A stretch of 14,687 nt of DNA from Candidatus Sulfobium sp. (lineage in GTDB: Bacteria > Nitrospirota > Thermodesulfovibrionia > Thermodesulfovibrionales > UBA6898), in assembly GCA_037380845.1 (NCBI GenBank), contig JARRRI010000042.1, forward strand, positions 1 to 14,687. Reading direction: 5' to 3'. Of this stretch, positions 5,737-10,002 are shown one piece after another. The notes under the pieces were generated by a model. It was not told the origin of the DNA and did no database searches. It saw only the letters and a program-made list of their open reading frames with translations. Positions within the stretch are counted from its first letter, which is position 1, and each line of letters starts with the position of its first letter. A program made the translations under genes and the position numbers.

Positions 5737-6042
5737 TTATCTCCCCGGTCTTCTTTCCGAGTGTCCCCTCCTGAAGCCGCCGTGTTCCCTGCGTTCCTGG
5801 GGCTTCGCTTCATTCACTACTATGGACCTGTCCATGAACGACTTTCCATTGAACATGGAAACCGCGTTCTGACTGTCCTCGTCCGACGCCATCTCAACAA
5901 AGCCGAACCCCCTGAGTCTTCCCGTTGCAGCGTCCTTGATCAGTTTGACGGACACCACTTCCCCCGCCTGCGCGAACAGGTCGCGGAGGTCATCCTCAGT
6001 CGCCTTGAAAGAGATGTTCCCTACATACAGTCTCGTACCCAT
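5737..6042 (-). CDS. RRM (RNP-1) RNA-binding protein
   Basis: RNP2 LYVGNI, RNP1 RGFGFVEM, VVNEAKP and an Arg/Gly-rich tail. SD aggagg. Confidence 0.95.
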   Translation of the reverse strand: MGTRLYVGNISFKATEDDLRDLFAQAGEVVSVKLIKDAATGRLRGFGFVEMASDEDSQNAVSMFNGKSFMDRSIVVNEAKPQERREHGGFRRGHSERRPGR

Positions 6043-6194: not shown

Positions 6195-6857
6195 ATGGTC
6201 ACTTCGAAAGTCGCCCTTGCCGGAATTGAGAGAGCCCTGGCTGAAGCACGCCGGACTCTTGAAAGAGGAGGCGTAGTAGCCTTTCCGACGGAAACCTTTT
6301 ACGGGCTCGCAGTGCGATATGACGACAGGGAGGCGCTGCAGAGGCTTTACGAGTTGAAGCACCGCCCTGCAGACAAGGCGATGCCCCTGATCGCCGGCGA
6401 AAAGAAAACACTCCTTATGGTCGCCCTTCCCCTGAAGGCAGTCGCGGAGGAACTGGCGCAAATATTCTGGCCGGGACCGCTCACCATGCTGACCGCCGCA
6501 ACGGAAGGACTTTCCGGGTTCCTGACAGGGGGGACCACAAAGGTCGCGGTAAGGATACCGGGAGAATCGTTTGCGCTCCGTCTGGCCCGTTTTATGGGCA
6601 TTCCCCTTACCGCAACGAGCGCCAACATCTCGGGGCATCCGCCTGCCCAGAGTCCGGACAAAGTAGTCGAATATTTCGGCGGAAGAGTCGATCTCCTCGT
6701 TGACGAGGGCAGGACACCGGGTGGAAAGCCCTCGACGATCATAGACGTGACCGGTCCGGAAGTGCGCATAGTGAGGGAAGGAGCGATCTCCCGTGAAGAG
6801 ATATTGACTTCTTTACGCGGGCGTTCCGTCAGTGCCCGGCATAGGCGACCGTCATGA
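6195..6857 (+). CDS. tsaC: L-threonylcarbamoyladenylate synthase (TsaC/YrdC, without the Sua5 C-terminal domain)
   Basis: Motifs GGVVAFPTETFYGLA, LKHRP (KxR), FWPGPLT, VAVRIP, PLTATSANISG, PSTIID and REGAI. Confidence 0.95.
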   Translation: MVTSKVALAGIERALAEARRTLERGGVVAFPTETFYGLAVRYDDREALQRLYELKHRPADKAMPLIAGEKKTLLMVALPLKAVAEELAQIFWPGPLTMLTAATEGLSGFLTGGTTKVAVRIPGESFALRLARFMGIPLTATSANISGHPPAQSPDKVVEYFGGRVDLLVDEGRTPGGKPSTIIDVTGPEVRIVREGAISREEILTSLRGRSVSARHRRPS

Positions 6858-7533
6858 GAACAACAAACATCAGCCCTTTGCCCAGCTCCAGCCGCCCCGC
6901 TGTGCGCAATCTGACTTTGTAGAGAGTCGCCGCACAGACCAGGTTGTCGGTCAACGGAGCCAATGCAATGAGAGGCAGTGCAAGAAACTGATAAATTGAT
7001 GCTGCGAGGACAAGATAGGCGACCATCAATATCCTGTATGTGTTCTGTCTCGTAAACTGCATCCTCACTCTGAAGACGCCCGCCGTGAAAAAGAGGGCAA
7101 CGGCCATGTACAGCGTGACATCGACAGACCCTGAAGCCGGCAATTCGGCAAACGGCGCGGCAACCGCCAGCAGGAAAAAACCGGCTATTTCGGTGAGAAT
7201 GAAATGCTCGCCCTTCAGAAGAAAAAGAAGAAGATATGCCGCCGGGATAATCAGAAAGGGCAAAACCGCCGGAAAGGTGTGCCATGCAACGCTCACGATG
7301 AGCAGCGTTCCCGTCCCGATTTGTACGAGGAAAACGGCAATATATTTCCCGGAATCCGGGCCTTTACCTCTGAGCCAGAGCGTGAGAGCCTGTTTGGAAT
7401 TAACGTAAAGAACTAATGCTGCAAAGACTGCCGCGGCACCAGGGCTGAATCGGCCGCCAGCAGACAGCCCCGTCAGATATGAGAGGACTGCTACTCCCCA
7501 TGAACCGTATTCCTTAAGGATATAACGTTTCAA
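6829..7533 (-). CDS. YwiC-like integral membrane protein
   Basis: TTG start. N-terminal KEYGSWGV resembles the YwiC-family (E/Q)HGAW motif. There are many hydrophobic segments and a C-terminal GRLELG motif. Confidence 0.65.
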   Translation of the reverse strand: MKRYILKEYGSWGVAVLSYLTGLSAGGRFSPGAAAVFAALVLYVNSKQALTLWLRGKGPDSGKYIAVFLVQIGTGTLLIVSVAWHTFPAVLPFLIIPAAYLLLFLLKGEHFILTEIAGFFLLAVAAPFAELPASGSVDVTLYMAVALFFTAGVFRVRMQFTRQNTYRILMVAYLVLAASIYQFLALPLIALAPLTDNLVCAATLYKVRLRTAGRLELGKGLMFVVLMTVAYAGH

Positions 7534-7701
7534 AAGCCCTTTCTTGCCGCCGTGAAGGCGCTTCTATTTAATTCAGGGCCCCCGGACTGATCAGAACCTG
7601 TCTCAAAATTGAAATAGCGTTACAGGTCAGTGTGTTATTCCGGCCCTGGCAGACTTCGGCGAATGGGGCCATTTCAGCGCTCAGGCCGGTATCCCGCAGA
7701 A

Positions 7702-8409
7702 CTACTTCGCATTCAGAGAAGGCCTGACGTCTTTTTGGTAATTAAGTGCCGAGAAATAATTCGCTATGGCGGTCCTGTATTCTCCGATACTCTTCATCGC
7801 CTCTTTTGCGAGATTGAACCGCTGTTCGAGGCTGATCTTGCCACCCTGGTCTTTTACAGACCGCACGAAGTCAGGATACTGCAGAGGCGATGTCAGCACT
7901 GCGATACTGTGCCAGTTCTTCGCGGAAGCCATCGTCATGGCGGGACCGCCTATGTCGATATTGACCCTCGCGGTCTCGGCAGTGGTGTCCTGCTTCGCAA
8001 TAACCGACGTGAAGGGATACAGGTTGCCTACAAAGGCATCGAAATAAACGCCAGGGTTTCCGCCGAGTTTCGCCAGGGTTTCATAGATGTATTTCTCGTG
8101 GGCGGGGTTTCCCCTCTCCGCGAGAAGGCCGGCGTGTATCTTCGGATGCAGGGTCTTCACAAGGCCTCCCTCCATTTCCGGAGCGCCGGTAAAGTCTTCC
8201 ACGGATACGTAGTTCCCGGCCGCCTTGTCCCCCAGTATCTCCATGATCTTCTTGCCCGTGCCGCCGGTAGAATAAAAACGCACATCCGGATTAATCCCGG
8301 CAATTCCGTTTACAAGCTCCTCGAGACCCTGCTTGTCAAATACGCTCACCAGTATATGCTCCGGCCTGATCAGGTCTACAACCTGATAAATATTCTCTCT
8401 TATGCTCAT
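7702..8409 (-). CDS. purH: Stand-alone IMP cyclohydrolase (PurH N-terminal MGS-like domain only)
   Basis: Motifs LVSVFDK, STGGT, FTGAPEMEGGLVKTLHPKIHAGLL, NLYPF, NIDIGGPAM and SAKN. The protein ends after TAIANYF, and no AICAR transformylase domain follows. Confidence 0.88.
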   Translation of the reverse strand: MSIRENIYQVVDLIRPEHILVSVFDKQGLEELVNGIAGINPDVRFYSTGGTGKKIMEILGDKAAGNYVSVEDFTGAPEMEGGLVKTLHPKIHAGLLAERGNPAHEKYIYETLAKLGGNPGVYFDAFVGNLYPFTSVIAKQDTTAETARVNIDIGGPAMTMASAKNWHSIAVLTSPLQYPDFVRSVKDQGGKISLEQRFNLAKEAMKSIGEYRTAIANYFSALNYQKDVRPSLNAK

Positions 8410-8445
8410 CTCTCAGCCCCCGCTTTCATGTATTCTTGCTGCCCG

Positions 8446-8610
8446 TCACGTCCTGTCACAGGAGCGCGAAGATATTTTTTCCCATGTTTTTTCGTCTATC
8501 TCGTCCAGATATTCGGCCAGTGTATATCTTTTGCCGCAGTCCATGCAGCGCAGGGTGACCGTCCGTCAACCCATGAGCAGTTTCAGCTCGCCTTTGCAGT
8601 CCCTGCACAT
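8446..8610 (-). CDS. Probable dual-CXXC small selenoprotein, 54 aa, with Sec at codon 15 (UGA at 8566-8568)
   Basis: Manual translation: MCRDCKGELKLLMG-U-RTVTLRCMDCGKRYTLAEYLDEIDEKTWEKISSRSCDRT*. The in-frame TGA lies between two CxxC motifs. A GGAG is upstream, a SECIS-like hairpin is downstream, and the pattern fits the 'dual CXXC motif small (seleno)protein' family. The gene is absent from the ORF track. TTG at 8613 is an alternative start. Confidence 0.8.
8533..8549 (-). promoter_or_regulatory. Candidate bacterial SECIS hairpin
   Basis: GCUGCA-UGGAC-UGCGGC is a 6-bp stem with one G-U pair and a 5-nt loop with G at loop position 2. The loop starts after 22 nt downstream of the UGA, consistent with the general bacterial SECIS model. 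Confidence 0.55.
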
Positions 8611-8646
8611 CAAGATGGATTTTCTCCGGAATCAGACATGAAAATT

Positions 8647-8676
8647 ATTGTAGCCTATTTCGGTTATTTTTGTTAA
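8647..8676 (-). promoter_or_regulatory. Sigma70-type promoter for the selenoprotein / IMP-cyclohydrolase unit (TTAACA-18-TACAAT)
   Basis: On the minus strand: ttaaca (8676-8671), an 18-nt spacer, then tacaat (8652-8647), in an AT-rich patch. Confidence 0.5.
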
Positions 8677-8845
8677 CTGCGAAGTTAAGGCGTCGACAGC
8701 CCGGATACACGCAGCCTGGCTCCCCCTGCCTGCCGGACAGACCTCCCGTCCCGTGGCTTCAGGTATACCGGTTAAGGTAAAATAATTAACGGCTTTTTTG
8801 CATTCTGCCTGATAGAGGGTCATTGGATACATGTTTTCAAACGGC

Positions 8846-9469
8846 ATGCGAGTAGAAAAAATTGCAGTGGGACAGCTCGACGTAAACTGCTTCGTTGTCT
8901 CCGATGGGTCGCCGGAGGCAATGGTAATAGACCCCGGTGACGAGTCTGACTGCATTTCCTGGACGATTGACCAGCTGTCCCTGAGACCCCGATACATCCT
9001 CTTTACCCACGCACATTACGACCATGTCTGCGCCGGAGGTGATTTAAAGGCCAGGTATGGCGCATCAATAGTCATGCATGAGAGCGAAAGAGATACATAC
9101 CTCGCGACGAAAGACCTGTGCATATCGTGGGGCTACGGTCCGGAAGACTTCCCTCCTCCGGACCTTCTGGTAAAAGACGGTGACTTAATCACGGTGGGGG
9201 GTATTATGTTTGAGGTATTGCATGCGCCCGGCGATACTCCGGGCGTGATCTGCCTTTACGGCGGCAAGACCCTTTTCTCAGGAGACACCCTGTTCAGGGG
9301 CGCCGTGGGCAGGACGGACCTGGCCGGGGGCGACATTGGACTGCTCGGCAACTCACTCAGGAGAATCCTCGGCTTTCCTCCTGATACCAGGGTAATGTGC
9401 GGACATGGCGAAGAGACCACCATCGGCTTTGAATTACAGCACAACCCGTTTCTGCGCGGTCGAATATGA
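8846..9469 (+). CDS. MBL-fold metallo-hydrolase (glyoxalase II / YcbL-YqgX-like)
   Basis: Motifs VGQLDVNCFVV, VIDPG, THAHYDH (HxHxDH), LFSGDTLFRGAVGRTDL, GHGEETTIGFE and NPFL. The start is probably MRVEK (8846), with 8831 as an alternative. Confidence 0.92.
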   Translation: MRVEKIAVGQLDVNCFVVSDGSPEAMVIDPGDESDCISWTIDQLSLRPRYILFTHAHYDHVCAGGDLKARYGASIVMHESERDTYLATKDLCISWGYGPEDFPPPDLLVKDGDLITVGGIMFEVLHAPGDTPGVICLYGGKTLFSGDTLFRGAVGRTDLAGGDIGLLGNSLRRILGFPPDTRVMCGHGEETTIGFELQHNPFLRGRI

Positions 9470-10002
9470 AAGGTGCAATGTGTGAAGAGCCCGGTCCCCT
9501 GCCGCGTTTAATCGGGCAGGTGTTCCGGCATTGGGAAGCTGACCTGGGTCCCGTAAGAGCCCACTCGAAAAATTTCGCCCGTCTTATCGGGAAGGCAGAT
9601 CCCTTTATTCAGGAGAGCACCGCAGAAGTCTGTCCTCACTGCCGGCAGGTCTGCTGTATAAACAAACATTCTTATCATACTCATTTTGATGTCCTTTATC
9701 TGCTTGCACTCGGGGAAAAGGTACCCTCCCACGCGGTGGGCATGTCCGATTCTGAGCCATGCCAGTTTCTCTCCGCCCAGGGCTGCCGGCTGGGGCGCTT
9801 TTTGAGACCTTACAGGTGCACCTGGTATTTCTGCACCCCCTTGCTGGAGCATATGCGTAATGCTCCCGTGCGAAGATACCGGGCCTTCATCACCTGTCTG
9901 GAACAGATCTCAAGGGAAAGAGAACTTCTCCTGACCTCTTTTGTCGAAATCGCAAAAGAACGCTCTCTCATTAAGGACGTCCCTCTGCACGAATTCTACT
10001 GA
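9466..10002 (+). CDS. Cys-cluster protein, YkgJ/CxxCxxCC-like putative Zn/Fe-binding protein
   Basis: CPHCRQVCC ... CQFLSAQGCRL ... RPYRCTWYFC. ATGA overlap with the MBL gene stop. Confidence 0.7.
   Translation: MKGAMCEEPGPLPRLIGQVFRHWEADLGPVRAHSKNFARLIGKADPFIQESTAEVCPHCRQVCCINKHSYHTHFDVLYLLALGEKVPSHAVGMSDSEPCQFLSAQGCRLGRFLRPYRCTWYFCTPLLEHMRNAPVRRYRAFITCLEQISRERELLLTSFVEIAKERSLIKDVPLHEFY

Follow-up and report, generated by a model that had tools for sequence, protein, structure and literature searches.

A probable dual-CXXC small selenoprotein gene with a SECIS-type hairpin in its second CxxC motif in Candidatus Sulfobium sp.

The window, by which we mean the whole 14,687-nucleotide stretch of Candidatus Sulfobium sp. 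DNA analyzed here (positions 1 to 14,687 of contig JARRRI010000042.1), carries on its minus strand a short reading frame interrupted by a single TGA. From an ATG at position 8610 the frame reads MCRDCKGELKLLMG-TGA-RTVTLRCMDCGKRYTLAEYLDEIDEKTWEKISSRSCDRT and runs to a stop TGA at 8448-8446; its upstream end is set by an in-frame TGA at 8634-8632. Translation table 11 splits the frame at 8568-8566, and the list of open reading frames has no entry there. In the alignment of related loci the TTG at 8613-8611 falls at the position of the relatives' own start codons (ATG, TTG, CTG or GTG); because of this placement, and of the RBS-like GGAG that stands 10 nt before it, translation may begin one codon upstream of the ATG, so that the product would have 55 rather than 54 residues. 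A preliminary description of this DNA, made from its letters alone, had given the frame, the TGA, the downstream hairpin and the 22-nt spacing exactly as we find them, and the possible TTG start is the one refinement to it. The gene is followed on the same strand by a stand-alone portion of purH, and no terminator-like site was found between the two. The coordinates of these features are collected in Table 1.

Table 1. Position and character of the features at the small-gene locus; coding, decoding and control assignments are predictions.
Feature	Position	Strand	Remarks
Small selenoprotein CDS	8446..8613	-	Start TTG 8613-8611 or ATG 8610-8608; product 54-55 aa
In-frame TGA, predicted to be read as Sec (residue 15 from ATG)	8566..8568	-	TGA in 57/59 loci, TGC/TGT in 2
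First CxxC (Cys2, Cys5)	8596..8607	-	Invariant in protein alignment; TGC/TGT mix in relatives
Second CxxC (Cys22, Cys25), overlapping hairpin	8536..8547	-	Invariant; both codons TGC in 57/57 Sec forms
C-terminal Cys51 (TGT)	8458..8460	-	Kept in 52/59 loci; Ser or Ile in 7
SECIS-type hairpin	8533..8549	-	Stem GCUGCA 8549-8544 / UGCGGC 8538-8533, loop UGGAC 8543-8539
GGAG, RBS-like motif	8624..8627	-	10 nt before TTG, 13 nt before ATG; putative function
Sigma-70-like promoter match TTAACA-18 nt-TACAAT	8647..8676	-	10/12 consensus positions; consensus match only
Stand-alone N-terminal (IMP cyclohydrolase) part of PurH	7702..8409	-	36 nt past small-gene stop

To place the product among known proteins, its sequence was compared with curated family models. 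With U read as C, the protein matches the NCBIfam equivalog NF041197.2, "dual CXXC motif small (seleno)protein" (CxxC_Se_CxxC), at 61 bits (E 8.8e-17), and the DNA itself, scored through the stop, reaches 51.7 bits against the same model; the curated cut-off is 40 bits, and none of 14 control genomes gave a match over it. All the traits of the family are present, namely a length of about 55 aa, two invariant CxxC motifs and a Sec or Cys at an aligned position between them. These scores bear out the assignment to a dual-CXXC small (seleno)protein family that had been made in the preliminary description. Other searches returned little: the small protein has no Pfam match over the gathering score, Rfam holds nothing relevant in 8300-8900, and a sequence search of the PDB recovered only fragments with a CxxCGK knuckle. 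A natural Cys-form relative, when compared with a protein atlas, led back to clusters of the family itself and otherwise only to generic zinc ribbons.

The family itself is already known, having been predicted in 2007, curated as NF041197 and reviewed in 2022 and 2026. According to a table in the 2026 review (PMC13188914), NF041197 corresponds to the "hypothetical protein OS_HP3" of Zhang & Gladyshev 2007, where (PMC1976440) OS_HP3 is among six new selenoprotein families and is represented by two TGA-containing genes with a predicted SECIS and without a Cys homolog. OS_HP3 is also named in a table of the 2022 review and in a 2025 methods paper. In the portions of papers reached by our literature search we found none that gives OS_HP3 or NF041197 a function; two reviews name the family without one. 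The window gene agrees with NF041197/OS_HP3 in HMM score, length of about 55 aa, CxxC-Sec-CxxC order, position of the Sec or Cys and presence of a hairpin after the UGA, and shows no family-defining difference. What the present comparison adds concerns the Nitrospirota branch: a near-obligate use of Sec (57/59), the dual coding of SECIS and second CxxC, the distribution within the phylum and the dispensability of the C-terminal Cys.

We examined how the TGA codon fares among relatives. Within the GTDB family to which the window belongs, the gene was found over the cut-off in 51 of 54 genomes, and the 52 matches from this search comprise 50 with exactly one TGA, one with none and one fragment at a contig end. 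In a sample of 401 genomes spread evenly over the phylum, NF041197 matched in 172 (159 over the cut-off); of the 150 that were listed, 146 carry a single TGA and four carry none. For reading by codon we used 59 loci, made up of the window, 29 from the own-family search and 29 from the phylum search, which were the best-scoring ones and not a random draw. The Sec codon is TGA in 57 of these and TGC or TGT in the other two, and two further stop-free matches outside this set also have Cys at exactly the Sec codon. Thus homologs do carry Cys or TGA aligned at position 15, and no other residue was seen there in the loci read. In the 56-sequence protein alignment the invariant positions are C2, C5, U/C15, C22, C25, Y34, W43 and R53. 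One of the four Cys forms comes from a 99%-complete genome in which selA was not found; the genomes of the other three retain selA. The Cys form from the genome without selA (L040) has Sec15, Arg16 and Arg21 all changed to Cys, with a hairpin that can still pair, and looks like a recent Sec-to-Cys conversion after loss of the Sec machinery.

The genome from which the window comes (assembly of 3.18 Mb in 104 contigs) contains the full set of genes that the preliminary description had named for a search. The genes selA (620.3 bits) and selB (331.6 bits) adjoin each other, selD (311.9 bits) lies at C20:72213-73058, all three over their cut-offs, and a tRNA-SeC with anticodon tca was found with aragorn. 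The selD gene has one in-frame TGA itself, and its selenophosphate synthetase is apparently a selenoprotein too. Sequence from other runs was also inspected: the contigs of runs X1, X9 and X10, the last two of which belong to a second study, distinct from that of the possible source runs, show no difference across 8566-8568. A diverged contig from X9 differs over 8385-8627 by 21 substitutions and two 1-base indels, none of which falls in the TGA or in 8533-8549. This variant represents a co-occurring strain or close relative, and both of its indels lie within 8430-8443, in the spacer between the small gene and the purH half. The TGA is therefore seen in second-study contigs and in a diverged variant, with neither TGC nor TGG in its place.

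These observations bear on two simpler accounts of the locus. The TGA could be a true stop, either closing a 14-residue leader peptide that is followed by a separate open reading frame or marking a nonsense pseudogene of a Cys-containing zinc-ribbon gene; the break in the table 11 frame and the presence of a Met23 codon downstream of the TGA would fit such a reading. However, the sequence before and after the TGA is conserved in frame in 57 of 59 loci from many genera, Cys stands at the very same codon in the remaining two, the genome has a complete Sec machinery, and a pseudogene would not be expected to retain a single stop, always at this codon, in 51 of 54 genomes of the family. We regard a true stop as exceedingly improbable. 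A misassembled or misread TGC or TGG, conceivable in a metagenome-type assembly of 104 contigs, has a next to negligible chance of accounting for the TGA, given the agreement of the X1, X9 and X10 contigs, its retention in the diverged variant and its recurrence at the same codon in 57 of 59 loci.

We looked for three things that would weigh against a selenoprotein gene, namely a missing Sec machinery, a residue other than Cys or Sec at the Sec codon and a TGC or TGG in independent sequence, and found none of them. The family HMM, the Sec machinery, the TGA or Cys of the relatives and the TGA of the second-study contigs together uphold the hidden selenoprotein gene with an in-frame UGA that had been proposed. 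Judged by this comparative evidence, it is highly probable that the locus is a genuine, intact gene for an NF041197 selenoprotein of 54-55 residues whose UGA is decoded as Sec, a statement that does not extend to its function. For annotation, it is one more gene that is cut or skipped by callers relying on stop codons and that is recovered by a curated family model.

A second feature of the locus is the hairpin that follows the UGA. Sixteen bases separate the UGA from the stem, and the first loop base lies 22 nt from the A of the UGA. The hairpin is made of codons 21-26, R-C-M-D-C-G (CGC UGC AUG GAC UGC GGC), and since these include the codons of the second CxxC motif, the same bases would be under both a protein and an RNA constraint, which makes the overlap of SECIS and CxxC a neat case of dual coding. 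RNAalifold finds the 6-bp stem in the alignment of the relatives. All six stem pairs are kept in 56 of 56 distinct Sec-form sequences; five are invariant, and one changes from U-G to U-A in four sequences. At the loop-closing position a conditional seventh pair is formed by C-G in 23 of the 56, U-A in nine, A-U in three and U-G in two, and so can form in 37; in the other 19, which include the window with its unpaired first and last loop bases (U and C), it is absent. No two-sided compensatory change was found in the six core pairs among the 56 distinct Sec forms; as these pairs hardly vary, there is nothing two-sided to count, and covariation speaks neither for nor against the stem.

To separate the needs of the RNA from those of the protein, we compared codon usage inside and outside the stem in the 57 Sec forms. 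Inside the stem, all 57 forms have TGC at both Cys22 and Cys25, all 55 forms with Arg at residue 21 use CGC, and all 53 with Gly at residue 26 use GGC. Outside the stem, Cys2 is TGC in 46 and TGT in 11, Cys5 is TGC in 41 and TGT in 16, and Cys51 is TGC in 27 and TGT in 24; Arg16, Arg49 and Arg53 use five to six codons each, and Gly14 uses four. The sequences are related, and these counts consequently overstate the number of independent events behind the freezing of synonymous sites. A dependence between neighboring codons was also seen: an ACG at codon 23 goes with a G in the last position of codon 24 (TCG, GCG, GTG or GAG) in 23 of 24 cases, and with ATG at codon 23 that position is free. None of the four Cys forms has Arg at residue 21, where Cys, Ser, Val and Asn stand instead, and three of them have degraded stem codons. 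Given that Arg21 is given up once Sec is replaced by Cys, its conservation in the Sec forms looks like a requirement of the RNA rather than of the protein. Taken together, the frozen synonymous sites and their relaxation in the Cys forms argue that the hairpin is under a constraint at the RNA level beyond what the protein needs. The SECIS-like hairpin that the preliminary description had noted, with a G-containing loop 22 nt after the UGA, is thereby upheld by its six conserved pairs and synonymous sites.

Folding of the single sequence is not decisive, and it is the comparative evidence that carries the case. The 17-nt hairpin alone is predicted at -7.0 kcal/mol with a z of -3.3. A 41-nt region reaches -11.9 kcal/mol, a value that includes a non-conserved upstream helix, and is no better than its shuffles (z -0.69), and a 76-nt region gives a z of -1.35. 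The bSECIS model of Zhang & Gladyshev 2005, in the form summarized in the 2026 review (PMC13188914), asks for a loop of 3-9 nt, a stem of 4-16 bp, a spacing of 16-37 nt, a G in the first two loop positions and a free energy of at most -7.5 kcal/mol. With its 5-nt loop, 6-bp stem, G at loop position 2 followed by another G, and spacing of 22 nt, the window hairpin agrees with this model in these respects; its free energy of -7.0 kcal/mol lies above the bound, by a measure that depends on the length folded.

The distribution of the gene was compared with that of selA. Every GTDB family in which the gene occurs in the 401-genome Nitrospirota sample also has selA, and in the 192 genomes of families lacking selA it was found in none, the Cys form included. 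A comparison of the two lists by hand shows selA in 162 of the 172 gene carriers. The remaining ten consist of the Cys-form genome, three TGA carriers that are 96-98% complete and in which no selA was found at E <= 1e-50, and six genomes that are 63-96% complete. Common descent by itself could account for this co-distribution of the gene with selA. Within the sampled Sec-using branches of the Nitrospirota, this family, which is among the smallest selenoproteins, is nearly universal and almost always in its Sec form. A DNA pattern scan of named records gave 119 matches, 99 of which encode the family; the scan demanded both TGA and hairpin and was used for record titles only, not for frequencies. 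These titles are overwhelmingly of Nitrospirota, Thermodesulfovibrionales and "Nitrospirae bacterium" MAGs, and the proteins of two relatives from the same genus recur in records titled Thermodesulfovibrionales.

The gene neighborhood was examined in the same relatives. The preliminary description had placed the small gene upstream of a split purH, and this arrangement is found here and, on the same strand, in the majority of relatives from the window's own GTDB family, but not outside that family. In the own family an MBL-fold hydrolase gene and an open reading frame of no assigned family usually lie upstream on the opposite strand. In a second, distant large group, 20 loci share one cluster of upstream frames on the same strand; L071, the only member scanned, has there a class II aspartyl-type tRNA synthetase (aspS) with a GAD domain. 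The surroundings of other loci include a YacP-like NYN gene or a gene of the ArsR type. We considered a functional link to purH and rejected it in view of these other neighbors; because the linkage is confined to one GTDB family, it is better explained as inherited synteny than as a family-wide functional association. The PurH-like frame of the window spans model positions ~6-198 of 510. The next minus-strand frame, at 6829-7533, matches a YwiC-like membrane protein over the Pfam cut-off and is not the AICAR transformylase half, and the other purH half is not adjacent to 7702..8409 in the window. On the plus strand, 8831-9469 resembles an MBL-fold hydrolase (GloB-like, below the cut-off), and 9466-10002 is a frame without a family match, which is also kept in two loci from other families of the order.

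To obtain a structural basis for considering function, the protein was modeled with AlphaFold2 using the 56-sequence alignment. The model (mean pLDDT 76.9) has strands at residues 9-13, 18-22 and 28-30, short helices at 31-34 and 40-47 and a low-confidence tail (mean pLDDT 49 over residues 51-54). Sec15, in a motif G-U-R/K, is placed in the turn of the hairpin formed by strands 9-13 and 18-22, and the CxxC motifs are placed at the base of that hairpin. Foldseek against the pdb gave a best E of 0.38 (none at or below 0.001), its weak matches being mostly zinc ribbons and Rieske-type knuckles, and a wide structural search with VIA gave a best Z of 3.2, with none at or above 5. The common element shared with Rpb9, the eIF2-beta zinc ribbon, NrdR, ZifS and the Rieske cluster-binding subdomains is a pair of CxxC knuckles flanking a beta-hairpin. 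On zinc-ribbon and rubredoxin-knuckle domains the N-terminal residues ~1-35 superpose with an rmsd of 1.5-3.3 A and weak scores, and the sequence relation goes no further than the CxxCGK knuckle. Past residue 30 the window protein differs from these domains, continuing into an acidic helix and a basic tail that lie beyond the short N-terminal superpositions. From this model we infer that the CxxC knuckles would hold one metal ion, with Zn the likeliest and Fe possible, in a fold of the zinc-ribbon kind, and that Sec15 would be exposed as a reactive selenol in the hairpin turn, both judged from secondary structure only.

We propose, then, that UGA 8568-8566 would be read as Sec by the genome's own SelA, SelB, SelD and tRNA-Sec, with SelB presumably brought in by the 6-bp hairpin, the G-containing loop of which begins 22 nt downstream, so that the codons of the second CxxC would double as the recoding hairpin. 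In the finished protein, the four Cys would bind one metal ion and Sec15 would be presented as a selenol at the tip of the hairpin. Nothing in these results changes what is known of how Sec is decoded. Of the chemistries considered for such an exposed Sec, a redox or a carrier/ligand role is the most likely, and we favor it tentatively.

Other roles for Sec15 were weighed against this one. Sec15, instead of being an exposed redox residue, might act as a fifth ligand alongside the four Cys (and Cys51 in those proteins that have it), in a site for iron, a soft metal or an Fe-S cluster; the protein would then be a very small electron carrier or a metal chaperone. The five invariant Cys/Sec positions are what such a site would call for, there are weak matches to Rieske cluster-binding subdomains (Z 3.0-3.1, rmsd 1.5-1.6 over 32 residues) and to the HypA zinc site, and Sec has been proposed as a metal ligand in other families, as mentioned in the 2026 review (PMC13188914). 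However, AlphaFold2 puts Sec15 at the far end of a hairpin with five residues per strand and the knuckles at its base, and from this position, read from secondary structure only, joint coordination with the four Cys would be unlikely; Cys51, moreover, is dispensable in seven of 59 loci. We consider a fifth-ligand role unlikely.

The preliminary description had suggested instead that Sec15 and the C-terminal Cys form a redox-active intramolecular selenenylsulfide. In the window protein this could occur: Cys51 is present here as in 52 of 59 loci, and the C-terminal tail, modeled with low confidence, might be mobile enough to extend to the tip of the hairpin. As a property of the family the suggestion does not hold, since Cys51 is missing in seven of 59 loci, six of them Sec forms with Ser or Ile at position 51, and a Sec15-Cys51 pair is thus not the family's general mechanism. 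Further Sec-containing relatives from the pattern scan likewise lack it, ending in ...PANRA, ...PSNRA or ...PGNRA. We hold the selenenylsulfide to be distinctly unlikely as the role of Sec15. A different kind of role, which we put forward as a long shot, is that of a selenium-specific housekeeping factor, which might for instance carry, buffer or sense reactive selenium, or sense the state of Sec decoding, and would not be simply a further redox selenoprotein. This speculation draws on the confinement of the gene to families that carry selA, the rarity of conversion to Cys, the housekeeping neighbors (the purH half, aspS and the YacP-like NYN gene) and the fusion of the SECIS to metal-binding codons.

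Several other reading frames in the window were considered in the course of this work. The plus-strand frames 7630..8676 and 8402..8641 overlap the small gene; neither has a family match, and both were taken as spurious, the former also because it is antisense to the purH half. The minus-strand frame 8632..8997 (121 aa) overlaps the MBL gene and has no family match, and its similarity outside the genus is mainly in the part antisense to that gene; it is probably not a gene. Farther away, the minus-strand frame at 5737-6042 encodes a 101-aa RRM-type protein that scores 101.2 bits against NF058537, "RNA-binding regulator", whose cut-off is 100.
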